Source: Acidobacteriota bacterium (GTDB lineage Bacteria; Acidobacteriota; Thermoanaerobaculia; Multivoradales; UBA5704). Taken from it: 64,000 bases of DNA. Location of the stretch: assembly GCA_046765915.1 (NCBI GenBank), contig JBKPTH010000002.1:28552-92551 (forward strand), given 5' to 3'. A program made the position numbers and the translations under genes. The notes beneath the pieces are model-generated. The model was not told the DNA's origin, made no database searches, and saw nothing but the letters and a program-made list of their open reading frames with translations. Position 1 is the first letter of the stretch, and each line of letters starts with the position of its first letter. Shown piece after piece: positions 3,560 to 64,000 of the stretch.

Positions 3560-5734
3560 GTGCCCGTCTCCATGCGACCCGTGCCTCTCCCGCTGTACGG
3601 AGATCCGGCTCGAGTTCCGCCCGACCGCCCTCCCGGGGCCGTGGACGTCGTCGTACCGGTAGCCGGCGCGCCGGAGGCTTTCTCCCGCTGCCTCGACAGC
3701 CTCCTCGTTCATACCGACCTCGCGCGGGACCGGCTGGTGGTGGTGCTCGACGGGCCGCAGCCGGCGGCGACGGCAGAGCGCGTCGAGCGCCTGCGCCGGG
3801 AGCGGCCCGAAGGAGTCCTCGTCCTGGAAAACCCGCGGCGGCAGGGATTCGTCGCCGCCGTCAACCGCGGGCTGGCGGTTTCCGGCCGCGACGTCATCCT
3901 GCTCAACAGCGATACGCGGGTCACCGCGGGCTGGGTGCGCAAGCTCCAGGCGGCCGCCTATTCGGCGCCGGAGATCGCCACCGTGACGCCGTTCTCCAAC
4001 AGCGCCACCATCTGCTCGCTGCCGCGCTTCCTGGAGGCCAACGCCCTGCCCGCCGGCTGGGACGCCGACGCCTTCGGGCGTCTCGTCGAGGAGCGTTCGC
4101 GGCGGGCCTACCCGCGCCTGCCCACCGGCGTCGGCGTGTGCCTCTACGTCAAGCGCAAGGTCCTCGACGACGTCGGTCCCCTCGACGTCAAGAGCTTCGG
4201 CGAGGGCTACGGCGAGGAGAGCGAGCTCTGCATGCGGGCGCTCAAGGCGGGCTACGCGCATGCGCTGGACGACGCGACCTTCATCTTCCACGAGGGGCAG
4301 CGGAGCTTCGGCCCCAGCCGCCGGAAGAGGACGAAGGCCGCTCACCGGGCGATGCGGCGGCTGCATCCGGAGTATCTCGCCACGGTGGCGAGCTTCCTGC
4401 GCGAGGACCCGATCCGCCCCTTGCGCGAGCGCGTGGTCTCGGCGCTGATCCCCAAGCGGAGCTCACCCGACCTGCGCCGCCCGGTCAGGATCCTGCACCT
4501 GGTGCACGGCTGGCCGCCCTGGAACTCCGCGGGCACCGAGCTCTATGCCGCCTGGCTCGCCCGGCGGCAGGTTTGCCGGCGCGAAGTCACGGTCTACGCG
4601 CGCCTCGCCGACCCGCAGCAGCCCAACGGCGAGGCCGTGGAGCTCCTCGATCGCGGCGTCCGCGTACGGCTGATCGTCAACAATTTCACCCAGCGCGATC
4701 CGCTGGCGCGCAATGCCTTGCGGGACCGGGCGATCGAGGCGGACTTCGCGCGCCTGCTGGCGGAGACGGCGCCGGGGCTCCTCCACGTGCACCACCTGGC
4801 GGGGCACACCGCTTCCCTCGTCGGCGCGGCGGCGCGGCGGGGCATTCCGGTGGTCTTTCAGCTCCAGGACTGGTGGCAGGCCTGCGCCCGTGTCAATCTG
4901 CTGGACGCGTGGGGCCGCCTCTGCAGCGGCCCGGGGATCGGCAAGTGCGCGGCCTGCCGGCCGCTCACCGGCCTGCCGCCGGCCGCGGTGCTCAACCGGG
5001 CGCTCTACGCCTGGCGCGCCTCCCGGATGAAGCGCGCGCTACGCCAGGCGGACGCCTTCGTCATGGGCTCGCGCTGCATCCATGAGAGCTACCTGGAGCT
5101 CGGCTACCTGCGGCCGGAGGACCCGGCTTTCGTGATTCCGTACGGCGTGGATCTGCCGCCGCGGCTGGAACGGCGGCCTCGGCGGCCGGGCGAGCCCCTG
5201 CGCTTCGGAGTGATCGGCTCGCTCCTGCCGCACAAGGGGATTCACGTCGCGGCGGCCGCCTTCGCGGGGATGGATCCGGGCCGGGCGCGGCTGGCGATCT
5301 GGGGCGATCCGTCCGTCGATCCCTCCTATGCGGAAGCGCTGCTCGGATCGGCCGCCGTGGAGCTGCGCGGGCGCTTCGAGGAGCAGCGGAAGCCGGAGGT
5401 CTTCGCCGAGCTCGACGCCTTGATCGTGCCCTCGCTCGGCCTCGAGTCGTTCGGCCTGGTGGCGCGCGAAGCCCTCTACCACGGCGTGCCCGTGCTGGCG
5501 AGCGACCGTGGCGCGCTGCCGGAGCTCTTCGCGGGTCCGGGGGCGTACGGCGCGCTCTTCGATCCGGAGGATCCGGCGTCGCTGCGCGCCTGGATCGAGC
5601 GGTTGATCGCGGAGCCGGAGATCCTGGACCGTTGGACGGCCGCGCTGCCGGCCGTCAAGGGGATGGACGAGCACGCAGAGGAGATCGAGGGGGTCTACGA
5701 GCGGGTGCTGAGCCGGCGGAGGCCCTCGCGATGA
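3560..5734 (+). CDS. bifunctional glycosyltransferase: N-terminal GT2 domain fused to C-terminal GT4 (GT-B) domain
   Basis: The N-terminal Rossmann GT2 signature is present (VVPVAG...VVLDGPQP...LLNSDTRV). The C-terminal GT4 has the E-x7-E motif region (LIVPSLGLESFGLVAREALYHGVPVLASDRGALPELF). Start is GTG 3560 or ATG 3572. Confidence 0.7.
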   Translation: MPVSMRPVPLPLYGDPARVPPDRPPGAVDVVVPVAGAPEAFSRCLDSLLVHTDLARDRLVVVLDGPQPAATAERVERLRRERPEGVLVLENPRRQGFVAAVNRGLAVSGRDVILLNSDTRVTAGWVRKLQAAAYSAPEIATVTPFSNSATICSLPRFLEANALPAGWDADAFGRLVEERSRRAYPRLPTGVGVCLYVKRKVLDDVGPLDVKSFGEGYGEESELCMRALKAGYAHALDDATFIFHEGQRSFGPSRRKRTKAAHRAMRRLHPEYLATVASFLREDPIRPLRERVVSALIPKRSSPDLRRPVRILHLVHGWPPWNSAGTELYAAWLARRQVCRREVTVYARLADPQQPNGEAVELLDRGVRVRLIVNNFTQRDPLARNALRDRAIEADFARLLAETAPGLLHVHHLAGHTASLVGAAARRGIPVVFQLQDWWQACARVNLLDAWGRLCSGPGIGKCAACRPLTGLPPAAVLNRALYAWRASRMKRALRQADAFVMGSRCIHESYLELGYLRPEDPAFVIPYGVDLPPRLERRPRRPGEPLRFGVIGSLLPHKGIHVAAAAFAGMDPGRARLAIWGDPSVDPSYAEALLGSAAVELRGRFEEQRKPEVFAELDALIVPSLGLESFGLVAREALYHGVPVLASDRGALPELFAGPGAYGALFDPEDPASLRAWIERLIAEPEILDRWTAALPAVKGMDEHAEEIEGVYERVLSRRRPSR

Positions 5735-47336: not shown

Positions 47337-47825
47337 ATGGGCAAGAAGCTTTTCGTCGGCAACCTCAACTTCAAGACCAACGACGACGACCTGAAAGAGC
47401 TGTTCGGCCAGGCCGGCACGGTCGATTCGGCCACGGTGATGATGGACCGCGCCACCGGCCGCTCCCGCGGCTTCGGCTTCGTCGAGATGGGCACGGAAGA
47501 AGAGGCCCAGAAGGCGATCCAGCAGTTCAACGGCCACGAGTTCCAGGGCCGCAACCTGAACGTCAACGAGGCCCGCGAGCGCACGCCCGGCGGTCCGCGC
47601 GGCGGCGGCTATGGCGGCGGCTACAGTGGCGGCCGCGGCGGCTACGGCGGCGGCGACCGCGGCGGCTATGGCGGCGACTTCAACGCCGGTCCCAACTTCG
47701 GCGGCGGCGACGACTTCGGCGGCGGCAGTCCCGGCTTCGGCGGCGGCTTCAACCGCGGCAACTACAAGCCCCGCAAGGAAGGCGGCAGCCGGCGGGGCCT
47801 GCGGGCCAAGAAGCGCAGCCTGTAG
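47337..47825 (+). CDS. RRM-domain RNA-binding protein with glycine-rich (GGY/RGG) tail
   Basis: RNP2 is LFVGNL and RNP1 is RGFGFVEM. A C-terminal GGYGGG low-complexity region follows. Confidence 0.8.
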   Translation: MGKKLFVGNLNFKTNDDDLKELFGQAGTVDSATVMMDRATGRSRGFGFVEMGTEEEAQKAIQQFNGHEFQGRNLNVNEARERTPGGPRGGGYGGGYSGGRGGYGGGDRGGYGGDFNAGPNFGGGDDFGGGSPGFGGGFNRGNYKPRKEGGSRRGLRAKKRSL

Positions 47826-55322: not shown

Positions 55323-56659
55323 ATGCCCACGCTGCTGCTCTTCGCGCTCCTCTTGGCGTCTCTCGCCATTCTCGCGGGCTTCCTGATCAGGCGGCGGTTG
55401 AGGCGGCGCATCCAGGCCCTCACCGAGGCGGCGGAGCGCATCGGCCGCGGCGACCTCCGGACGCCGGCGCCGCGTGCGCCGGAAGCCGAGCTCGGCACGC
55501 TCGCCGCCGCCATGGACGACATGCGGCGGCGCCTGCTCCAGCTCACCTCCGAGCTGCGCCGCCGCCAGGCCGAGGGCGAGGCGATCCTCACCGGCATCGT
55601 CGAAGGGGTGTTCAGCGTCGATCGCGACCGCCGCATCCGCTATCTCAACCCCGCCGCGGCGGCGATGCTCGGCGTGCGGCCGGAGGAGGCGCTCGGCCGC
55701 TTCTGCGGCGACGTGCTGAACCCGCAGGGCCGCGAGGGCGTGCGGCCGTGCGAGGAGAGCTGCCCCATCGTGCACGCCCGCTTCCGCGGCGGCGCCGCCG
55801 CCACCGAGCACCTGCTGCGGCCGGACGGCACGCGGCGCGCTGTGGTGATCACCAGCGCGCCGCCGGCCGAGGAGCAGCAGGTGCAGTTGCTGCGCGACGA
55901 GACCGACGTCGAAGCCGCGCGCCGGCAGCGCGACGCCGTGCTCGCCAACATCTCCCACGAGTTCCGCACGCCGCTCTCGGCCCAGCTCGCCTCGCTCGAG
56001 CTGCTGCGCGACCGGCTGCTGCAATCTCCCGAGGGGCTCGATCCCGAGACGCGCGATCTCGTCCTCTCGCTGGAGCGCGGCAGCCTGCGCCTGACGCATC
56101 TCATCGACAACCTGCTGGAGAGCGTGCGCATCGAATCAGGGCAGGACTCGATCCGCGGCCGCCCGGTGGCCCTCGACGAGGTGATCGAGGAGGCCGTCGA
56201 GATGACCGCCCCGCTGCTCGCCCAGCGCGCCCAGTCCATCGAGGTCGAGCTGCCGTATCCGCTGCCAGCGGTCCATGGCGACGCGCCCCGCCTCACCCAG
56301 GTGTTCGTCAATCTGCTTGCCAACGCCAACAAGTTCGCGCCCGCGGGCTCCGCCGTGCGCGTCGGCGGCGCGGTGGAGGAGGAGCGGATCGTGCTATGGG
56401 TGGAGGACGACGGGCCGGGGATTCCGGCGGCGGCCGGGGCCGCGGGCGGGCGGTCCCTCTTCGACCGCTTCGTGCGCCTCGCCGGCGAAGGGGAGGAGCC
56501 GGAGTCGGGAGGCATGGGACTGGGCCTGTTCATCGTGCGCTCCATCGTCGAGCGGCACGGCGGCACGGTCGAGGCGGAGGCAGGGAGCGGTGGCCGCGGC
56601 ACGCGCCTGCGGATCCTCCTGCCGCGGGCCGCTCACGGCGCCGGCGAGGAGACCGCGGC

Positions 56660-56663
<4 letters not shown>
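55323..56663 (+). CDS. sensor histidine kinase (TM, HAMP, PAS-like, HisKA, HATPase_c)
   Basis: The H-box is ISHEFRTPL, the N-box is VNLLANANKFA, and the G-boxes are DDGPGIP and GGMGLGL. Confidence 0.8.
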
Positions 56664-57355
<692 letters not shown>

Positions 57356-57426
57356 GAACCGCTGTGCAGGCTCGGCTCCGGAAACCCACTGGAGGCACCG
57401 ATGGGGTTCAGCTTGGCAATGATCCT

Positions 57427-57456
57427 TGACAAATGGAGTCCATCAATGGCATATTA
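57427..57456 (+). promoter_or_regulatory. putative sigma70-like promoter with embedded palindrome ATGGA-N-TCCAT
   Basis: TTGACA is followed by a 17-18 nt spacer and then CATATT, upstream of ORF 57636. Confidence 0.25.
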
Positions 57457-57635
57457 GGCGCATTCAGCAACGGAGCGCATCATCGGCTCCCATAGAGCAA
57501 CCCAGCGGCGCGGGAATCACTGGATCGGGAACCAGCGAGGCCGCCGGGCGAGATTGAAGCCGGAGTTGGCCCGGCGCCAATCGAGGCGCCGTGGTTGAAC
57601 CGGAGCCCAAGCGGCTCCAAAAAAGGAGAAGGACC

Positions 57636-58052
57636 ATGCCGAAGCGAAAGAACAAGGAGAAGTTGAAGTCCCGCCTGGGGTACCTCCAGCGCCTCAACGC
57701 CCCGCTGACCGCCAACAGCGCCGACCTGGTGCATCTGGAGGCCACGCGCGCGCGGTTCGCGGAGTTTCTGGCGCAGGCCGAGGAAGCGGCTAACCGCCAG
57801 GGCGTCCACACCGCCGCCAAGCAGGAGGCGAGCCTGCAGCTCCGCACGGCTCTCGCCGAGTGCGAGCGGCTGGCGAACATCCTGCGCCTGGGGGTCAAGC
57901 AGCACTACGGCATCCGCTCGGAGAAGCTCGCCGAGTTCGGTCTGCAGCCGTTCCGTGGCCGCAAGACCCCGGATGCCGAGGAGCCGCAGCCTTCCGTTCC
58001 CACGCCGCCGGAGCCGCAAACGCCGCCGCCGGTCAACCCCAAACAGTCCTGA
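57636..58052 (+). CDS. hypothetical protein (basic N-terminus, Pro-rich C-terminus)
   Basis: Strong AAGGAG ribosome-binding site 7 nt upstream of the ATG. GC3 is high. Confidence 0.45.
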   Translation: MPKRKNKEKLKSRLGYLQRLNAPLTANSADLVHLEATRARFAEFLAQAEEAANRQGVHTAAKQEASLQLRTALAECERLANILRLGVKQHYGIRSEKLAEFGLQPFRGRKTPDAEEPQPSVPTPPEPQTPPPVNPKQS

Positions 58053-58149
58053 AGTCCTCGGGAGGCGTGGACCTTCACGCCTCCCTCCCTTTGTCTCCCC
58101 CTCTTCGAAGACCCGATCCGCGGACGCTCCGCCTGGGCCCGTGGACCTC

Positions 58150-58750
58150 TTGACCGACTCTCGGCACCCTGAGAAAAAGTCCGCTTACTCGATGAGCGAG
58201 CAAGCTTATTTTTCCCAAAAGAAGCTCGCTCCTTGAAAGAGTCCCGGGACTTTGCCGGAAATAAGCTCACTCGGCGACTGAGCAAGCTCATCCAATGAAA
58301 GAGCGAGCTTGTTTTTCCGTAGCGGAGCTTGCTCTTTGAAAGAGTCCCGCCAACTTTGCAAAGATCCGCGGACTCGGTGACTGAGCGAGCTCACTCACTG
58401 ACTGAGCGAGCTTGTTTTTCCGCAGCGGAGCTTACCCGATGAAAGAGTCCCGGGACTTTGCCGGAAATAAGCGGCCTCATTGACCGAACGAGCTCGTCCG
58501 GAGAAAGAGCGGGCTTCTTTTCGCGTAGCGGAGCTTCCTCGCTGACTGAGTCCCGGGACTTTGGCAGAAATAAGCGGACTCACTGACTGAGCAAGCTCGC
58601 TCGCTGACTGAGTGAGCTTATTTTCCCGAAAACGGGCCCACTCACCGACAAAGTCCCGGGACTTTGCCAAAAATAAGCCGGCTCATTGACTGAGGAAGCT
58701 CACTCGCTGACTGAGCGAGCTTATCTTTGCAAAGAGGAGCGGGCTCGCCG
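58150..58750. repeat. tandem array of about 5.5 copies of a ~103 bp repeat, each with an 18 bp perfect palindrome CAAAGTCCCGGGACTTTG and a long imperfect hairpin
   Basis: Unit starts are at about 58240, 58344, 58442, 58548 and 58651. Conserved blocks are AGTCCCGGGACTTTGCCGGAAATAAGC and GAGCGAGCTTGTTTTTCC. No ORF is present. Confidence 0.8.
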
Positions 58751-58969
58751 AGGAGCTCCCGGGCCGTCGCGCCCGCACCGAGCCGACAGCTCCCCCCGCG
58801 CGGGGACGGGAAGGCATCCTTCGGGGAGAGTCCTCGCAGGCGCCGTCCTTCCCCGGCCGGCGAGCCGGCGAGGGCTCAAAGAAGAAAGTTGTCAGATGAG
58901 TCGGCGTTTTTCCGTCTTATATAGGTGGCGGACGGAATCGCCCGTCCGGTCCATCGAGAGGGCTGCGCT

Positions 58970-59962
58970 ATGCCTGAGCCGACCCATGCCGTTTCTTCCA
59001 CGAGGGAGCCCAAGCTGCTCGACCGGGTTCGCGCCTCGGCGCGAGTCCGTCACCTGAGCCTCCGCACCGAGAGGACCTACGTCCAGTGGATCCGCCGCTA
59101 CATCCTTTTTCACGGCAAGCGCCATCCCGCGGAGATGGGGGAGGCGGAGATCAACACCTTCCTGACGCACCTGGCCGTCGAGGGAAAGGTCAGCGCCTCG
59201 ACGCAGACTCAGGCCCTGTGCGCGATCCTGTTCCTCTACCGCGCTGTCCTGGGCCGGGAGGTGGGCGAGTTCGAGGGGCTCGTACGGGCCAGACGCAGGC
59301 GCAAGCTGCCGGTGGTGCTGACGGCGGAGGAGGTCAAGCGGATCCTGGTCAACGTCGAAGGAGTCGAGCGGCTCTTCCTTTCTCTCCTCTACGGCACCGG
59401 ACTGCGGCTGACGGAGGCCCTCCGGTTGAGGATCAAGGACGTGGACCTGGTCTACGACCAGATCACCGTACGCGACGGCAAGGGAGGGAAGGATCGCGTG
59501 ACCATGCTGCCGGTCTCCTTGAAGGCCGAGCTGATGGAGCACCTCAAGGGTGTCAAGCGGCTGTACGAGGAGGATCTGCGCGCCGGGTACGGCCGCGTCC
59601 ATCTTCCCCATGCCTTGGCGAGGAAATACCCGCGGGCGGCGGGTGAATGGGGCTGGCAATACGTCTTCCCGGCGCCGCAGATCTCGCGCGACCCGCGTTC
59701 AGGAGAGCACCGGCGCCACCACCTGCACGAGAGGCCGCTCCAACGAGCCTTCCATGATGCGGCACGGAAGGCCGCCGTCACGAAGGCGGCGACCTGCCAT
59801 ACCCTGCGGCACTCCTTCGCCACCCACTTGCTGATGAACGGCTACGACATCCGGACGGTGCAGGAGCTCCTGGGGCACAGCAGCGTGAAGACGACGATGA
59901 TCTACACCCACGTCCTCAACCGCGGCGGCCGGGGCGTGCGGAGCCCGATCGACGTGCTATAG
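58970..59962 (+). CDS. intI: integron integrase
   Basis: Colinear with IntI1, including the IntI-specific patch [21 protein letters not shown]...[14 protein letters not shown]. Box I is [16 protein letters not shown], box II is [12 protein letters not shown]...[22 protein letters not shown], and the C-terminus is GVRSPIDVL. Confidence 0.85.
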
Positions 59963-60354
59963 CCGGGTTTGCGCCGGCGTCTTATACGACCGGTTTCAGC
60001 CGCATAAGCAGCTCGGCTGCCGAGCCAAGGTATCCCCGCAACCGGTTGAAAGGATGGAAGATAGGCGAGGCTTGCCGAGTTGGCGAGAGGAGTGCTTCTT
60101 GCCTCTGAGCCAGCCGGATATCGTTCCCTTGGACGGCATATGGCCTTCGGATAAGGCTCACGCATGCGACGGTCTGCGGCCCCAACCTCAGCCGTTTCAA
60201 CAGGATCGCCCACAGCAAGCCTCCGTGCAGGAAAGCTGCCGATGTCCTCGGCGGCCCGAGAGGCTTATGCGACTGAATCTCCTCAGTTTGACCTGGCGCC
60301 GAAGGCGCTGTAGAATACTATGACGCATAGAATGAATGACATAGACCGCTTTCT

Positions 60355-60419
60355 CGAATTCGAGAACCCCCGTGACGCGAAGCACGCCACGAGGGGCGCA
60401 TAAGCTCAGTGCGAGGTTA
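60355..60419 (+). mobile_element. putative attI / first recombination site ending in canonical GTTAGGC core
   Basis: GTTAGGC is followed by GGCAGGGAGAAG. The same TAGGCGGCAGGAGA junction recurs after attC0 at 60692. Confidence 0.3.
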
Positions 60420-60440
60420 GGCGGCAGGGAGAAGTTGACG

Positions 60441-60647
60441 ATGGCGAAGGCAACAACCTGTCTTCTGAATGGTCGACGCGTTGAGATCGCTGAAGCCCTG
60501 CGTCTCAGGCAGGCCGAACGGATGGCGCCACCGTTTCGATGTATCGAGTGTTGCAAGCAAGTCCGGGCACATAAGAGGGGAACGACTGGCCAAGCAGCGC
60601 ATTTCGAACATCAGGAGCGAAACCCTTCTTGCTCCCTGAGCGGGTAG
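60441..60647 (+). CDS. cassette ORF: small Cys/His zinc-ribbon-like protein
   Basis: Ribosome-binding site GGGAGAAG. The metal-ligand pattern is FRCIECC...HFEH. The 3' end overlaps attC0. Confidence 0.4.
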   Translation: MAKATTCLLNGRRVEIAEALRLRQAERMAPPFRCIECCKQVRAHKRGTTGQAAHFEHQERNPSCSLSG

Positions 60648-60692
60648 CGGTCGGCAAGCATGTGTCGCAGCGCCGCACGCCACTGGTTGGCC
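60616..60692 (+). mobile_element. attC-like site 0 (77 bp)
   Basis: It aligns with attC1 and attC2: AGCGAAACCC...GAGCGG...GTTGGCC. Confidence 0.45.
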
Positions 60693-60716
60693 TGAGCTAG
60701 GCGGCAGGAGATATCG

Positions 60717-61100
60717 ATGAAGCAAGTAGTGCTGTCGATCCTAGTAGCTGTTCTGCTGGGCAACTGCCAGACAGCAGCCAGGCAAGAAGCCGATAGGCAA
60801 GCTTATTGCCTCAACGAGCTCGCGTGGTCGAGTGACCTTAGTAGACCGAAAATTATCGAATCCGAACCACCGTCGGGTTATCACTACGACGGCGGCGTCC
60901 TGCGAGCCTGTCTCGCTGTCCAGATTGACGAAGCTGGCAATGTCACAGGAGTGGAGGTGATCCGTACAGACTCTTCAGATTTCGGCTCAGCCTGTGCATC
61001 TGCGTTGAGGCGCTGGCACTTCGAGCCCGCAAGGAGGGGCTCAACACCGGTCGCTGTCACGTATCGCATATTTATGGTGAGTAGTATGACATATTTATAG
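60717..61100 (+). CDS. cassette ORF: secreted protein with TonB C-terminal-like domain
   Basis: Signal peptide. The C-terminus has the TonB_C-like pattern ACLAVQIDEAGNVTGVEVIRTDSSDFGSACASALRRWHFEPA. Confidence 0.5.
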   Translation: MKQVVLSILVAVLLGNCQTAARQEADRQAYCLNELAWSSDLSRPKIIESEPPSGYHYDGGVLRACLAVQIDEAGNVTGVEVIRTDSSDFGSACASALRRWHFEPARRGSTPVAVTYRIFMVSSMTYL

Positions 61101-61446
61101 GAGTATGGTGCAGTGGTTCGCCGCCTAACCCTCGCTTGGAGCGGACCGGCGGGCGACCGATCCAGCACGCAGGAGCGGCTGTGGCCGCCGGTCGCTCAAG
61201 CGTTGAACGTTCGCCGGCTGGCATGTCGAGGTTACCGCTTCAGGATTCATTGGCGGGGGAATTGAGCAGTGGCTGGTCAAACGGTTGATTCTCTAGAGCA
61301 CGGTGGTATCAGGTTTTCAGCAGACCTCCTTGCTGAGCTAGATCGTGGTCGTCCGGATGGGTTGGATCATTGATGCTCCGTTGTATGAGAAGGCTAGGTA
61401 AGGCAGGCCCTTATGAAGTGGTGAGGTATTGGTCTTGGAGAACGCC

Positions 61447-61521
61447 GGCGAACCCCGCCGATCGAGCGGACGGAAACCGCAAACTGCGCGGTTCCCGCCG
61501 CTCATCGGCATCCCGTTGGCC
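61447..61521 (+). mobile_element. attC site 1 (75 bp)
   Basis: R'' is GGCGAAC and R' is GTTGGCC. The central region GAGCGGACGGAAACCGCAAACTGCGCGGTTCCCGCC is an imperfect palindrome. Confidence 0.6.
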
Positions 61522-61722
61522 GGCCAAAAGTTGAGAAACGCCATTCCGTGAGCTCGATGTGCTGATGCGAGTAGGCTCAGCCGCGCGGAGAAGCTCGCCA
61601 AGTGGGTAGCACCTGTCTGCCCGGGCACGAGTGTTATCTCTGCCGTTCTCTTCTGATATACTGTTATACCCAGGGCACGCCGGATGCGCCGTCGTGCCCG
61701 AAGCTAATCTCAGGAGGACGAT

Positions 61723-62151
61723 ATGAAGAAGACAGCGGCAAGTCTTGGATTGTTCTTTCTGCTCATGGCGCATGTCGCACTGGCTGCGGACGACGGTCAG
61801 ACACAGCCGAAGGTGAACACTACTTTTACCAACTCCACAACGGCAACGGACCTAATCGCTACGACGAATGGCTCCGGTAATGTAAAGGGCGTGACGTGTA
61901 AACTGACCCAGGACGGATCAGGGTTCTTTCCAACAGCGCTCGTGAAGTTTTATGTGAACGGCGGCTCCGCACAATCCGTCACGCTCACTAGCGACTACAT
62001 GCTGCCATCCGGCACCGGACCTTTCGCAGATGGTTATACCGGCTGGGTCCCTTTCAATGTTCGCTTCACGAACAGCATTCGCATTACGATTCAAAAGGCC
62101 ACGTCGAGTGGTCTACAGATAGACTGCGCAGTAAGCTGGGGACTCGACTGA
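61723..62151 (+). CDS. cassette ORF: small secreted hypothetical protein
   Basis: Ribosome-binding site AGGAGGA. Signal peptide is MKKTAASLGLFFLLMAHVALA. GC content is ~50%. Confidence 0.5.
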   Translation: MKKTAASLGLFFLLMAHVALAADDGQTQPKVNTTFTNSTTATDLIATTNGSGNVKGVTCKLTQDGSGFFPTALVKFYVNGGSAQSVTLTSDYMLPSGTGPFADGYTGWVPFNVRFTNSIRITIQKATSSGLQIDCAVSWGLD

Positions 62152-62426
62152 CGTCGCGGCGCAACGCGTTACAGGTGATGTTATGGAAAGCGTTTCACGG
62201 CGGCCCGTAACGAGGCGCAGGATAGGTACCGATGGGCGGGCGCAGGTGCCGATAAGTGCCCCCAAATAGGCTCCGAATTAAAGGTGTCGACCGAGTGGAG
62301 AGGGGCACCAAACTGGCACTTGCATTTAGCGGAGGACTCTAGCCATAGTGTGGCTCTTGGGGTAGAATTGGAGCAGCCACTGCAGAGGAGAAGCTGCATA
62401 CCAATATCGCAATGTACTGGTTGTAC

Positions 62427-62503
62427 GGCCAACCCGAAGCGGTCGAGCGGACGGAAACCGCAAACAGCGCGGTTTCCGCGCGCTCACCGCTAAAGCGTTG
62501 GCC
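62427..62503 (+). mobile_element. attC site 2 (77 bp)
   Basis: R'' is GGCCAAC and R' is GTTGGCC, a perfect inverted pair. The centre is almost identical to attC1. Confidence 0.65.
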
Positions 62504-62537
62504 GACTAGATAGATGAGCTAAGGAGCATAATTTTTT

Positions 62538-63971
62538 GTGACAGCACCACCCGAAGAACCCAAGGGCGGAGAGTTGCGGAAAGGCCCTCTCGAAAGTCTA
62601 AAGGCGCTCGATCTAGTTGCACCCAAGGACCATAAAATCTGGGCCTTCGCGTTCCTTTTGCGGCTCAGTGAAGTGACCGGGATCCGGCAAGTAAAGGCGC
62701 TTTTTAAGTTCATGTTCGTTGAACTGGCGCCTTCGATTCCGGTCTCGCTAAGACGCAGCATCACGGGTGCGGCAGGTCTTCAGTCTGCGATCCTGGGTGC
62801 CGTGATCACGCTGATCTTCTGCCTTCTTGTGCCCATAGGTTGGACTATTGCAATCGGACGCTTCTCCAGCGACAAACCTGGAAATTTGTTTTTGCTGCAG
62901 GACGCCACTAACCTTGTTCTCTACTCGATTGTGTGTCCACTCTACGTAGGCCTGGGGTGTTGGTTGGCAGTCGCAGTCATAAAAGGTTGGGCAGACATTA
63001 AGGAATTCGCATCGACGCTTGGTTCCAAAGTGGAAAAGCCTTCGCGAGCAACGCTTATCAAAAACCTGCTTCTGGTTATTTTAATCCTCTCGATGGGATT
63101 CTTCTCCACCGCAGCCTATATCAACGATATCATGAAGCCAGACAACGTGCCTCAGCGCTACTGGTTTATGGATCTCAGCCGCTCGGGTGAACACATTCTG
63201 GGTGCTTTGGGTGTCTACTATTTTTTGTTGACTTTTGTTCTGCTCATCGTGACGCTTATATCAATCACTTTGTTCATGTCAATCTTTGTTTCGGTTATGG
63301 CAGTTGGGGACGCGTTGGAATCCAGAACACAACCCACTGAAGCCGAGCTGCCGGTTCTCGAGGCCAAGTTATCCACATTTACCGAAGCCTATATTCTTGC
63401 CAAAACACTGACCTTCGTATACATGGTCAATTTCTATCTGTGGCAGAAATCCCCCCTTGGCGCTACTCAGAATATATATGTCGCCGTCATCTTCTTGACC
63501 CTCTTCGGAGTCTTGTTTGTTTCGCTGCCTCGCTACTTCGTTGAGTTGCAATGGTACCGATTTCTGGTGCGCTCAAAACAAGTGCGTATTGATGAGGATG
63601 TATACGAGGATATTCGCCCGTACCGGATCAGAACACTTGCCTCTATTATGGATGACCTCCTGATTGGAGGCTTCGTGATCACAGTACTGACGGGTCTGCT
63701 TTCAGGGGTTCTCTCGAGCTCAGGGCCATACGCGCGTGTCTTTCGCGATTCGCGTGTGCAGAGCACATACACTGTCGCAGTTGACCTTTGTTACTATGAA
63801 CCGCCTGCGCAGCTTGCCTCAGAACTTGGGGTAGCTAATGATCGTGAGGTTATCGCTCGGGCCTATTCAATGCGCTCAACAGAGAGTGCACACCGTGAAG
63901 CGGCGTACATAGGCTGTTTGAAAGGGCTATCCGGGCTTGGCTCTGGCCAGAAAAAGCAATTTGGACATTGA
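62538..63971 (+). CDS. cassette ORF: polytopic membrane protein of unknown function
   Basis: GTG start 11 nt after AAGGAG. About 10 TM helices. Codon usage is low-GC. Confidence 0.5.
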   Translation: MTAPPEEPKGGELRKGPLESLKALDLVAPKDHKIWAFAFLLRLSEVTGIRQVKALFKFMFVELAPSIPVSLRRSITGAAGLQSAILGAVITLIFCLLVPIGWTIAIGRFSSDKPGNLFLLQDATNLVLYSIVCPLYVGLGCWLAVAVIKGWADIKEFASTLGSKVEKPSRATLIKNLLLVILILSMGFFSTAAYINDIMKPDNVPQRYWFMDLSRSGEHILGALGVYYFLLTFVLLIVTLISITLFMSIFVSVMAVGDALESRTQPTEAELPVLEAKLSTFTEAYILAKTLTFVYMVNFYLWQKSPLGATQNIYVAVIFLTLFGVLFVSLPRYFVELQWYRFLVRSKQVRIDEDVYEDIRPYRIRTLASIMDDLLIGGFVITVLTGLLSGVLSSSGPYARVFRDSRVQSTYTVAVDLCYYEPPAQLASELGVANDREVIARAYSMRSTESAHREAAYIGCLKGLSGLGSGQKKQFGH

Positions 63972-64000
63972 GCTGAGTTGGAGACCGAAGTAAACCGTGA

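Follow-up and report, generated by a model that had tools for sequence, protein, structure and literature searches.

The closest described systems are the inverted, or 'reverse', integrons, an established group that includes the type found in Treponema denticola ATCC 35405 and the inverted IntI sub-clade of soil and freshwater IntIs (PMC4909258, PMC4889954, PMC8352920). In these systems, intI is followed by the cassette promoter (Pc), attI and the cassettes, the integrase gene is co-oriented with the array, attC sites adopt the canonical fold, ORF-less cassettes occur, and the integrases cluster with other inverted IntIs. The locus analysed here, located at the end of a 64,000-nt stretch of DNA (the window), is like them in all these respects. 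It differs in its host, which is probably a member of Thermoanaerobaculia rather than a spirochaete; in its clade-specific attC family (~72–77 nt, with a GAGCGGACGG core); and apparently in a long spacer of about 320–450 bp between the intI stop and the putative crossover point, which carries repeated core-like motifs.

Sedentary chromosomal integrons such as the Vibrio cholerae superintegron are similar in their apparently chromosomal location, their highly similar attCs within an array, their cassettes mostly of unknown function and atypical GC content, and an attC family common to related genomes; the present integrase aligns full-length to that of V. cholerae (VchIntIA), but its gene points the same way as the array instead of diverging from it. 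With class 1 mobile integrons, the locus shares the IntI extra domain, 5- and 6-nt attC spacers, the extra L'' base and the GTTRRRY crossover site, and the additional core-like sites in the putative attI recall DR1 and DR2 of class 1. However, class 1 intI diverges from the cassettes and contains Pc, which here is placed 3' of intI, and neither the Tn402/3'-CS context nor resistance cassettes are present.

Integrons are gene-capture systems, and here the integrase and the captured cassettes point the same way. We conclude with high confidence that this high-GC genome carries, in the region examined, a chromosomal integron of inverted type that is complete and probably active (Table 1).

Table 1. 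Features of the integron and their positions in the window
Feature	Position	Strand	Basis or remark
intI, integron integrase, 330 aa	58970–59962	+	TIGR02249, Pfam, VchIntIA alignment
Post-intI platform: putative attI region and cassette promoter	59963–60422	+	Colinear with L166 post-intI region
Core-like repeat CTTATACGAC	59981–59990	+	Just after intI stop
Second core-like repeat CTTATGCGAC	60264–60273	+	Immediately upstream of −35 box
Putative Pc, TTGACC-17-TAGAAT, sigma-70-type, facing array	60288–60316	+	10/12 consensus positions
Putative attI core GTTAGGC, crossover G60416/T60417	60416–60422	+	AGGTTRKGC motif, similarity end-points
Cassette 1 (boundary uncertain)	60417–60686	+	3' junction GTTGGCC 60686–60692
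Cassette 2	60687–61209	+	ORF 60717–61100, attC 61123–61215
attC of cassette 2, 93 nt, R'' GCCTAAC, R' GTTCGCC (61209–61215)	61123–61215	+	R1, R2, fold, homologues
Cassette 3, 306 bp, no credible ORF	61210–61515	+	R' sites at 61209 and 61515
attC of cassette 3, 75 nt, R'' GGCGAAC, R' GTTGGCC	61447–61521	+	R1, R2, fold
Cassette 4	61516–62497	+	ORF 61723–62151, attC 62427–62503
attC of cassette 4, 77 nt, R'' GGCCAAC, R' GTTGGCC	62427–62503	+	R1, R2, fold
Cassette 5 (incomplete)	62498–64000	+	ORF 62538–63971; attC past window end

An intact integron integrase

The original prediction of an IntI with the specific insertion and all catalytic boxes was confirmed. The product of the ORF scored 468.8 bits against TIGR02249 (cutoff 265), contains the Pfam domains Phage_int_SAM_4 and Phage_integrase, and aligned end to end with VchIntIA (2A3V residues 8–318; E 1e-92); the alignment covers the IntI-specific extra domain and contains one gap, of a single residue. 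The catalytic residues R146, K171, H277, R280, H303 and Y312 are all present and are invariant across 26 relatives; the identity and integrity of the integrase are thereby directly established. The ATG at 58970 agrees with the lengths of the relatives' proteins (326–333 aa), while an alternative GTG start at 58925 gives a 345-aa IntI. Metagenomic IntIs are up to 90% identical, and the named relatives, whose names are the basis for the probable host assignment, belong to Thermoanaerobaculia. The class 1 equivalog model NF011946 (PRK15417) scored 365 bits, under its cutoff of 435.

attC sites on the strand of intI

Two covariance models were used: R1, derived from 22 attCs in other phyla whose arrays have the conventional, divergent orientation, and the clade model R2, built from relatives' sites only. 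In the conventional array L016, the attCs on the strand modelled in R1 follow the 3' ends of ORFs. Across both strands of the 64 kb, R1 returned three sites at E<0.01, all on the plus strand and all downstream of intI; the next-best match reached 15.6 bits (E 0.15). The identity and strand of these three attCs are thus direct observations, as is their co-orientation with intI.

The strongest site, that of cassette 4, scored 33.2 bits with R1 (E 1e-5) and 78.8 bits with R2 on the plus strand versus 39.4 on the minus; it folds at −32.8 kcal/mol (z −7.26), with an extrahelical G in L'' on the bottom strand and the canonical attC spacers of 5 and 6 nt. The attC of cassette 3 (R1 22.9 bits, E 0.003; R2 79.6 bits on plus versus 30.0 on minus) has a bottom-strand fold of z −3.95, and its L'' arm likewise carries an extra base. 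Both had been proposed from the sequence at exactly these coordinates, and both model detection and bottom-strand folding bore them out; over their 40-nt core they are 93% identical, and the family is common to the relatives. The attC of cassette 2 had been overlooked. It scored 25.7 bits with R1 (E 7e-4), on the plus strand only, and 18.9 bits with R2 (E 0.006), with bottom-strand fold z-scores of −2.7 to −3.3, and has homologues at L165 4519–4623 and L161 15222–15318. Covariation was strong: across the window and seven relatives, 30 attCs, all on the plus strand, had 91% of cells paired versus 30–46% with slid partners, and both-side changes occurred in 65 cells versus at most 11 in slid controls.

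A third site in the earlier list, ending at 60692, did not hold. As an attC end, its GTTGGCC gave fold z-scores of +0.45 and +0.23, no better than shuffled sequence; it was not among the R1 matches at E≤10, and its R2 score (12.3 bits, E 0.69) is noise. The junction may therefore mark an attC that has decayed, or a fusion of cassettes 1 and 2. The claim that each site directly follows an ORF stood in part: the attC of cassette 2 begins 22 nt past the TonB_C ORF, but that of cassette 3 closes an ORF-less cassette and that of cassette 4 lies 275 nt past a stop codon.

The platform between intI and the array

The platform of ~460 bp is alignable with that of L166 (IntI 89% identical) up to GCGAG|GTT, with similarity decaying beyond, and its organisation recurs in L161, L164, L081, L167 and L168. 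The first core-like repeat resembles the crossover core GGTTATGCG and forms an imperfect inverted repeat with ATAAGC at 60004–60009; the arrangement of the second, beside the −35 box, is also found in L166 (CTTATACGACCATTGACG), L161, L164 and L167. Six of eight independent post-intI regions contain 2–4 copies of CTTA[TC]N(1-2)CGAC or its complement, for an estimated chance expectation of ~0.02 per segment, and the CTTAYNCGAC repeats, as defined, are absent from the L165 and L168 post-intI regions. Within the 64-kb window, the plus-strand form with one N occurs only twice, both times in the platform, and its reverse complement is absent. These repeats are probably IntI-binding sites.

All eight independent relatives with enough sequence contain exactly one TTGACN-17-TAnnnT, 182–329 nt past the intI stop, where an estimated ~0.01 per segment is expected by chance; we predict that the corresponding element in the window acts as Pc. 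The attI placement is putative, being drawn from similarity end-points in three pairwise comparisons and a short shared motif: AGGTTRKGC lies 324–454 nt past the intI stop in the window, L165, L161, L164 and L081, and similarity between L161 and L164 stops exactly at CCAAG|GTT.

Cassette content

At least four cassettes continuing past the window had been proposed; we count four to five up to the window end, beyond which the array runs, and one lacks an ORF. Their ORFs, like the attCs, lie 3' of intI and on its strand, as originally described. In cassette 1, ORF 60441–60647 encodes a 68-aa Cys/His-rich, zinc-ribbon-like protein with only sub-threshold Pfam matches (DUF7830, 22.6 bits versus a cutoff of 27.5; CoiA_N). 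The 127-aa product of cassette 2 combines an N-terminal signal or lipoprotein-like peptide with a TonB_C domain (33.8 bits, cutoff 24.6). A distant TonB_C homologue (32% aa) is the first cassette of L165, with a GTTGGCC start and the same type of attC at its end. The only ORFs of at least 40 aa touching cassette 3 cross an attC or start at TTG. The cassette 4 product, of 142 aa, bears a Sec-type signal peptide read off the sequence (MKKTAASLGLFFLLMAHVALA|AD), and its ORF is followed by 275 nt of non-coding DNA with a promoter-like site; cassette 5 encodes a 477-aa multi-pass membrane protein. Searches of Pfam, NCBIfam and PADLOC gave no match for the former and no significant family match for the latter.

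A fall in GC to ~50% at the intI stop had been suggested. Content is indeed lower downstream (0.548 over 60001–64000 versus 0.64–0.73 elsewhere in the window, the upstream 58 kb being host-like), but it declines gradually without a step, from ~0.58–0.60 to 0.46–0.53 in the last cassette only, the lowest in the window. The upstream context in the window includes a two-component system and a separate family of 103-bp repeats just upstream of the integron.

Relatives and cassette turnover

Relatives with IntIs 73–89% identical keep the co-oriented layout and carry different cassettes. The upstream flank of L165 matches that of the window at 89% nucleotide identity; L165 shows no similarity to window positions 59963–60720, and its cassettes differ. 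In L166, the first cassette is different. Cassette turnover, the variability between related genomes expected at the outset, is therefore observed directly. In L081 and L161–L165, all attC matches at E≤0.1 are downstream of and co-oriented with intI, with minus-strand matches only at E≥0.24. Among the window and seven relatives, 30 of 30 matches at E≤0.01 are on the intI strand, and the sole one not downstream of intI (L167 3604–3669) follows an upstream partial integrase gene. The genes called past intI in the relatives are short; most share its strand and most lack a Pfam match. Housekeeping genes lie directly upstream of intI.

In a quick neighbour-joining tree that had neither an outgroup nor support values, the IntI fell, as anticipated, with inverted integrases, in a clade of 16 members all of which (16/16) have the inverted layout. 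This layout had been called rare. Of the ~44 GTDB loci with a related IntI that could be classified, ~14 had it, including most from Acidobacteriota; at about a third of such loci, it is not rare here.

Alternative interpretations

The platform could instead be decaying or inactive, with an integrase gene and a few attC relics in an effectively fixed genomic island that exchanges no cassettes. The junction without a folding attC, the cassette without an ORF, and the modest score and weak R''/R' complementarity of the attC of cassette 2 point this way. Yet the integrase has its full length and retains every catalytic residue, two of the attCs form nearly perfect hairpins, and the cassette content is neither that of L165, which shares the flank, nor that of L166, whose IntI is the closest and whose attI can be aligned; for a chromosomal integron, it is normal to include cassettes that lack an ORF (PMC4909258). 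We regard decay as unlikely. That a transposon, plasmid or integrative element carries the integron and makes it mobile seems to us decidedly improbable, although closely related IntIs occur in three genomic contexts (the two-component system and 103-bp repeats in the window; ArgR in L166; T6SS genes, AspRS and an acetyltransferase in L161, L162 and L168) and an IS91-family element adjoins the L167 platform. Against mobility stand the host-like GC of the 58 kb upstream and the close similarity of the two best attCs, of a family common to relatives, as in sedentary chromosomal integrons; moreover, among the ORFs listed from ~44 kb onward, none next to intI stood out as a transposase, tni/Tn402-like or conjugation gene, the upstream Pfam scan having covered the two-component genes and ORF 57591–58052 only.

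The near-palindromic attCs, which still score 30–39 bits with R2 on the minus strand, might also suggest a misread orientation, in which a conventional minus-strand array has its attI and intI past 64000 and the intI seen here lies at its far end. Strand scores did not support this: R1 reports the sites on the plus strand only, and R2 favours that strand by 40–50 bits at the 75- and 77-nt attCs. Canonical arrays show the extra L'' base, the GAGCGGAC motif and spacers of 5 and 6 nt on their ORF-coding strand, as seen here on the plus strand, and the four long ORFs are all on the plus strand, each upstream of an attC or reaching the window end. With the same layout in all relatives, housekeeping genes directly upstream of their intI, and intI separated from the first cassette by a conserved promoter and a GTT core, a misread orientation is very improbable. 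High-GC genomes are rich in palindromic repeats, and the 103-bp family lies just upstream; still, there is almost no chance that the hairpins are generic extragenic palindromes unrelated to IntI and only coincidentally near a tyrosine recombinase gene, since R1, trained only on attCs of other phyla, picks exactly these sites and no others in 64 kb, the sites covary strongly and have RYYYAAC/GTTRRRY boxes and an extra base in their L boxes, and the relatives' hairpins occur only downstream of an intI.

Proposed mode of action and significance

For the inverted chromosomal integron that we favour, we propose that intI is transcribed from left to right and that the ~460-bp platform 3' of its stop codon would present, in order, probable IntI-binding repeats, an outward-facing Pc and the attI core GTTAGGC, followed by cassettes co-directional with intI. 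The bottom strand of each closing attC would fold into the canonical hairpin, pairing R'' with R' and L'' with L' and leaving an extra base in L''. Recombination between two attCs would let IntI excise a cassette, and recombination of attI with attC, at G|TT, would let it insert one at attI; such present-day recombination is a prediction. Cassettes nearest attI may be expressed from Pc, possibly aided by read-through from intI.

The core elements of the original prediction are all supported: an intact IntI, 3' attCs on the same strand, cassette ORFs, lower GC and variable content. The co-oriented arrangement of intI and cassettes was already known and is the norm among the acidobacterial relatives of this integrase, so the find is sound but ordinary.

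Integron integrase

The ORF at 58970–59962 (+) encodes an integron integrase. Its product matches NCBIfam TIGR02249 at 468.8 bits (cutoff 265) over 315/315 model positions, and Pfam assigns it Phage_int_SAM_4 and Phage_integrase domains. Residues 19–328 align to Vibrio cholerae IntIA (2A3V; E 1e-92) with a lone gap of one residue, and the alignment is unbroken through the IntI-specific extra domain (query about 200–255), a domain that XerC and XerD do not possess. The catalytic set RKHRHY is complete: R146, K171, H277, R280, H303, and Y312 show no variation among 26 aligned sequences (the window IntI and 25 relatives), and by alignment offset we take them to correspond to VchIntIA R135, K160, H267, R270, H293, and Y302. 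These results bear out the original prediction, made from sequence, of an IntI with its characteristic insertion and catalytic boxes. Translation from the ATG at 58970 yields 330 aa (326–333 aa in relatives). The protein scores below the cutoff of the class 1 IntI1 equivalog NF011946 (365.4 versus 435 bits). Exact-sequence look-ups of the integrase, translated from either possible start, and of the TonB_C cassette protein gave no match. Its nearest matches are metagenomic IntIs of up to 90% identity; those with names belong to Thermoanaerobaculia, a class of Acidobacteriota.

attC sites and cassettes

Two covariance models of attC were used: R1, trained on 22 sites from arrays that lie upstream of intI and diverge from it in other, mostly proteobacterial, genomes, and R2, trained on 18 sites exclusively from close relatives. 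RNAalifold analysis of the R1 training alignment recovered the R and L helices and an unpaired column in L'', with compensatory changes in 12/16 pairs. Strand assignment was calibrated on L016, one of the conventional-array loci used to train R1, where every attC comes after the 3' terminus of a cassette ORF on the strand that R1 models. When the entire 64 kb was searched on both strands with filters off, R1 gave E<0.01 at three sites only, all on the plus strand and 1.2–2.5 kb from intI (see table); the fourth-ranked match (15.6 bits, E 0.15) falls within a histidine-kinase gene. The first of these sites was also matched by R2, at 61125–61213 (18.9 bits, E 0.006). Folding of bottom-strand DNA, which had been proposed as a check for extrahelical bases, gave z-scores of −2.7 to −7.3 with the unpaired base in L''.

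Features of the integron platform and cassette array
Feature	Position	Strand	Content or sequence	Evidence or 3' end
Putative Pc	60288–60316	+	TTGACC-17-TAGAAT	10/12 consensus positions
Putative attI core	60416–60422	+	GTTAGGC	Similarity end points (L161/L164, window/L166) and AGGTTRKGC motif
Cassette 1	60417–60686		68-aa Cys/His-rich protein	3' end GTTGGCC at 60686, without folding attC
Cassette 2	60687–61209		127-aa TonB_C protein (33.8 bits, cutoff 24.6)	attC 61123–61215
attC	61123–61215	+		R1 25.7 bits, E 7e-4; fold z −2.7 to −3.3
Cassette 3	61210–61515		Without credible ORF	attC 61447–61521
attC	61447–61521	+		R1 22.9 bits, E 3e-3; R2 79.6 bits (minus strand 30.0); fold z −3.95
Cassette 4	61516–62497		142-aa protein with signal peptide	attC 62427–62503
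attC	62427–62503	+		R1 33.2 bits, E 1e-5; R2 78.8 bits (minus strand 39.4); fold z −7.26
Cassette 5	62498 to beyond 64000		477-aa membrane protein	3' end outside window

The sites share a layout of an R'' box, a 5-nt spacer, L'' with one additional base, and then a GAGCGGAC motif, with a second half of L', a 6-nt spacer, and R'; this geometry agrees with that of the canonical sites collected. Their R''/R' boxes read RYYYAAC/GTTRRRY, and the unpaired base sits in the L'' arm. At 61123–61215 the top strand carries G instead of C as the additional base, and R''/R' pairing is weak; owing to this weak pairing, a hairpin heuristic based on AAC/GTT ends and fold energy picked up the two strong sites and missed this one. 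When 30 attCs of the window and of seven relatives were aligned, pairing held in 91% of cells versus 30–46% with partners slid, and two-sided changes occurred in 65 cells versus at most 11 in the slid controls. An nhmmer profile of canonical attCs, built on sequence alone, found no match to the window's sites; structure-aware models were therefore required. An Rfam scan of 57000–64000 returned nothing meaningful.

Of three attC-like sites named in the original prediction, the second and third (61447–61521 and 62427–62503) are thus recognized by R1 at E<0.01, by R2, and by folding. The first, ending in GTTGGCC at 60686–60692, was rejected as a folding attC: fold z-scores were +0.45, +0.23, −0.08, and −0.11 with boundaries tried at 60580–60700, 60610–60695, 60617–60692, and 60628–60700; R1 had no match there at E≤10 over the 64 kb; and the R2 score (12.3 bits, E 0.69) ranks amid noise. 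The cassette junction at 60686 is nevertheless probably real, because in L165, a related locus that shares the window's upstream flank, a TonB_C cassette encoding a distant homologue (32% aa identity) starts at GTTGGCC and ends in an attC of the same long type, the R'' of which (GGCCAAC) is the exact complement of GTTGGCC. Apparently, either cassette 1 has lost its attC to decay or it now acts together with cassette 2 as a single unit.

Cassette limits were set at the G|TT crossover of each R' box. The cassette 1 protein has sub-threshold matches only (DUF7830 and CoiA_N), and PADLOC gave zero matches on the window's cassette proteins. GC content is 0.64–0.73 over the first 60 kb and 0.548 in 60001–64000. 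A predicted drop at the intI stop thus holds as lower GC downstream, but the slope is gradual, from about 0.58–0.60 right after intI to 0.46–0.53 in the last cassette.

Several further features of the cassettes were observed. A sigma-70-like site, TAGCCA-17-TAGAAT (9/12; 62340–62368, +), falls within the 275 nt of non-coding sequence at the tail of cassette 4, just 5' of attC 62427–62503 and the 477-aa ORF; it could serve the distal cassette as a promoter internal to cassette 4. Near-identical 13–15-nt stretches, TAGGCGGCAGG(G)AG, lie ahead of the first two cassette ORF starts (60418–60432 and 60699–60712), and the first cassette of the related locus L168 has a similar GTTCGGCGGCAAGGAAAG; these may combine an extended R-box consensus with a ribosome-binding site, or the cassette 5' ends may share an ancestor. 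In relatives, arrays with attCs of the same family include cassettes for defence-like proteins with TIR_2, Abi_C, FRG, and CHAT domains (L161 9494–11830; L165 4651–6830; L167 15366–16838).

Orientation and relatives

In the window, intI, the cassette ORFs, and the top strands of the attCs are all on one strand, and the array lies 3' of intI. The co-orientation originally proposed is upheld by both models, as R1 attCs occur solely on the plus strand downstream of intI and R2 prefers the plus strand. Loci of relatives with IntIs 73–89% identical (L081, L161–L171) were fetched. At E≤0.01, attC matches in the window and seven relatives fall on the intI strand in 30/30 cases and lie downstream of intI, except for L167 3604–3669, which follows an upstream partial integrase gene; minus-strand matches in relatives are weaker (E≥0.24). 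An attC family of about 72 nt, specific to the clade, recurs among relatives, on the plus strand without exception. Upstream of intI, relatives carry housekeeping genes (AspRS, acetyltransferase, T6SS genes, ArgR), and the window carries a PAS-HisKA kinase and an OmpR-type regulator.

The survey was widened to 80 GTDB species loci among the matches listed, with IntIs 56–64% identical to the query; the IntI matches listed from the genome collection and from metagenomes were mostly of 56–65% identity and not the nearest relatives. In about 14 loci the attCs are co-oriented with intI and lie downstream of it (seven Acidobacteriota, two Eisenbacteria, two Coriobacteriia, and one each of Planctomycetaceae, Omnitrophota, and Blastocatellia), and about 30 have the conventional upstream, divergent arrangement. 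In a neighbour-joining tree of 49 IntIs, built without bootstrap or outgroup, the window IntI groups with 15 others in a clade of 16, all inverted, in keeping with the placement that had been anticipated. The claim that the co-oriented layout is rare is overstated in view of this survey, and the group is already in the literature: Cury et al. 2016 named the 'inverted integron-integrase group' and reported it as paraphyletic (PMC4889954); Ghaly et al. 2021 assigned inverted IntIs to a sub-clade within the soil/freshwater clade and constructed an attC model for Acidobacteria (PMC8352920); and Tansirichaiya et al. 2016 described a 'reverse integron' in T. denticola with the order intI-Pc-attI-cassettes (PMC4909258).

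Some loci depart from this layout. In L167 (579–12088), cassette-like ORFs and the attC at 3604–3669 (+) lie upstream of intI, behind a partial integrase gene (579–920), which suggests two integrons in tandem. The same locus carries a second tyrosine recombinase gene and an IS91-family (Y2) transposase about 530 bp past the intI stop, and a tandem duplication (GTTGAACAAAACCGCTACGCGGTA ×2) immediately after CCAAG|GTT; an insertion may have occurred at or near the attI core. In two Blastocatellia loci, L007 (343–3307 and 12371–13515) and L018 (618–710), attC matches on the intI strand lie upstream of intI, and L007 also has downstream matches. This layout, neither conventional nor simple inverted, may reflect two arrays or an ambiguous strand call.

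Cassette turnover and flanking sequence

Comparison of the locus in relatives, suggested earlier as a check on cassette variability, revealed that gene content is not identical. Window 57425–58630, 103-bp repeats included, has 89% nucleotide identity to L165; downstream of intI, L165 carries other genes (a 71-aa ORF, a TonB_C protein, FRG, and TIR_2), and attC sequences alone match. The first cassette of L166, the IntI of which is 89% identical, is also unlike the window's. With regard to a sedentary chromosomal integron, defined by tens of cassettes with highly similar attCs at a fixed chromosomal site, attC similarity is high, the window ends within the array at 64000, and relatives with 79–89% identical IntIs differ in flanks. 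IntIs 79–89% identical to each other adjoin three different neighbour sets: ArgR (L166 79–573); T6SS genes, AspRS, and acetyltransferase (L161 1382–3926, L168 1–9153); and, in the window, a two-component system and a 153-aa ORF (55323–58052). Either the platform relocates or the genomes are heavily rearranged.

Directly 5' of intI lies a 103-bp tandem repeat (58183–58724; 5.3 copies, 76% matching), with a counterpart at 1558–2008 of L165; it was absent from the remaining window and from the other relatives. As 103 is not divisible by 3, the repeat is non-coding. Each unit contains a palindrome, AGTCCCGGGACT, and ATAAGC/GCTTAT motifs, and 7/15 window copies of this hexamer fall within the repeat tract. 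A tie between the repeat and intI regulation is speculation. Short tandem repeats of 21–22-nt period, differing in sequence from one another, occur near intI in intergenic or upstream positions in L161 (3176–3328), L164 (389–447), and L081 (8891–8958). A GGC-rich tandem-repeat tract elsewhere in the window (47599–47747; periods 3, 12, 18, 21, and 33), within a long ORF region, probably encodes a Gly-rich low-complexity segment.

Platform, putative promoter, and candidate attI

For the stretch that separates the intI stop from the first cassette, BLAST detected no similarity of the window to L165 or L166, and a match to L164 over 29 nt only. Shared elements were found within this region: CTTA[TC]N(1-2)CGAC or its complement is present in 2–4 copies in 6/8 independent post-intI regions, and is similar to the crossover core GGTTATGCG. 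The window copies (CTTA[TC]NCGAC) are at 59981 and 60264; the 64 kb contains no further plus-strand copies of this one-N form, nor its reverse complement. TTGACN-17-TAnnnT occurs at exactly one site, 182–329 nt past the intI stop, in 8/8 independent relatives, with a chance expectation of about 0.01 per segment by our base-composition estimate. An AGGTTRKGC motif follows about 100–145 nt beyond this promoter. Similarity between L161 and L164 breaks off exactly at CCAAG|GTT, and the window and L166, when aligned globally, are colinear through the repeats, the promoter, a ATAGAATGAAKGACATA block, and AAGCTCA..GCGAG|GTT, beyond which the alignment decays. These similarity end points, together with AGGTTRKGC downstream of the conserved promoter, point to a candidate attI crossover at G60416|T60417. 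GTTGGCC at 60686 was also tried as the attI core, since L165 carries this sequence right before its TonB_C cassette; it was rejected because the L166 alignment runs to 60416 and the promoter spacing there fits that of relatives.

On every criterion open to test from sequence, the element belongs to the integron family and to its inverted group. Judged from its sequence features, it most likely operates by the standard integron mechanism in reverse layout: IntI would recombine folded attC bottom strands with attI, and Pc, 3' of intI, would transcribe the proximal cassettes. Because the genes are co-oriented, read-through from intI would also be possible. We consider it improbable that the platform of the acidobacterial inverted-IntI clade constitutes an undescribed attI class, namely a region of about 320–450 bp 3' of intI in which 2–4 core-like CTTAYNCGAC sites in both orientations would flank a conserved outward-facing promoter, with binding of IntI or a partner at the repeats coupling attI recombination to control of cassette transcription. 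On that reading, the 103-bp repeats 5' of intI, rich in the ATAAGC/GCTTAT half-motif, might belong to the same control region. The element as a whole is of an ordinary, already described kind, and its detection was correct and is well documented; the platform, with its core-like repeats and a putative Pc that keeps its position 3' of intI, is the sole aspect that might merit more work.

Significance

The current understanding of integrons is unchanged by this find, which adds a well-resolved chromosomal integron of reverse orientation from an acidobacterial lineage that is poorly cultured; its attC sites are mapped, and candidates are proposed for the attI core and for Pc. For IntIs of this neighbourhood, co-orientation is the rule and no curiosity. 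The find is of modest practical value: its attC family and platform motifs could be the starting point of clade-specific models with which to search soil and sediment metagenomes for cassette arrays. The uncharacterised mobile gene pool gains TonB_C lipoprotein-like, secreted, and membrane proteins from the window, and TIR, Abi_C, FRG, and CHAT proteins from its relatives.
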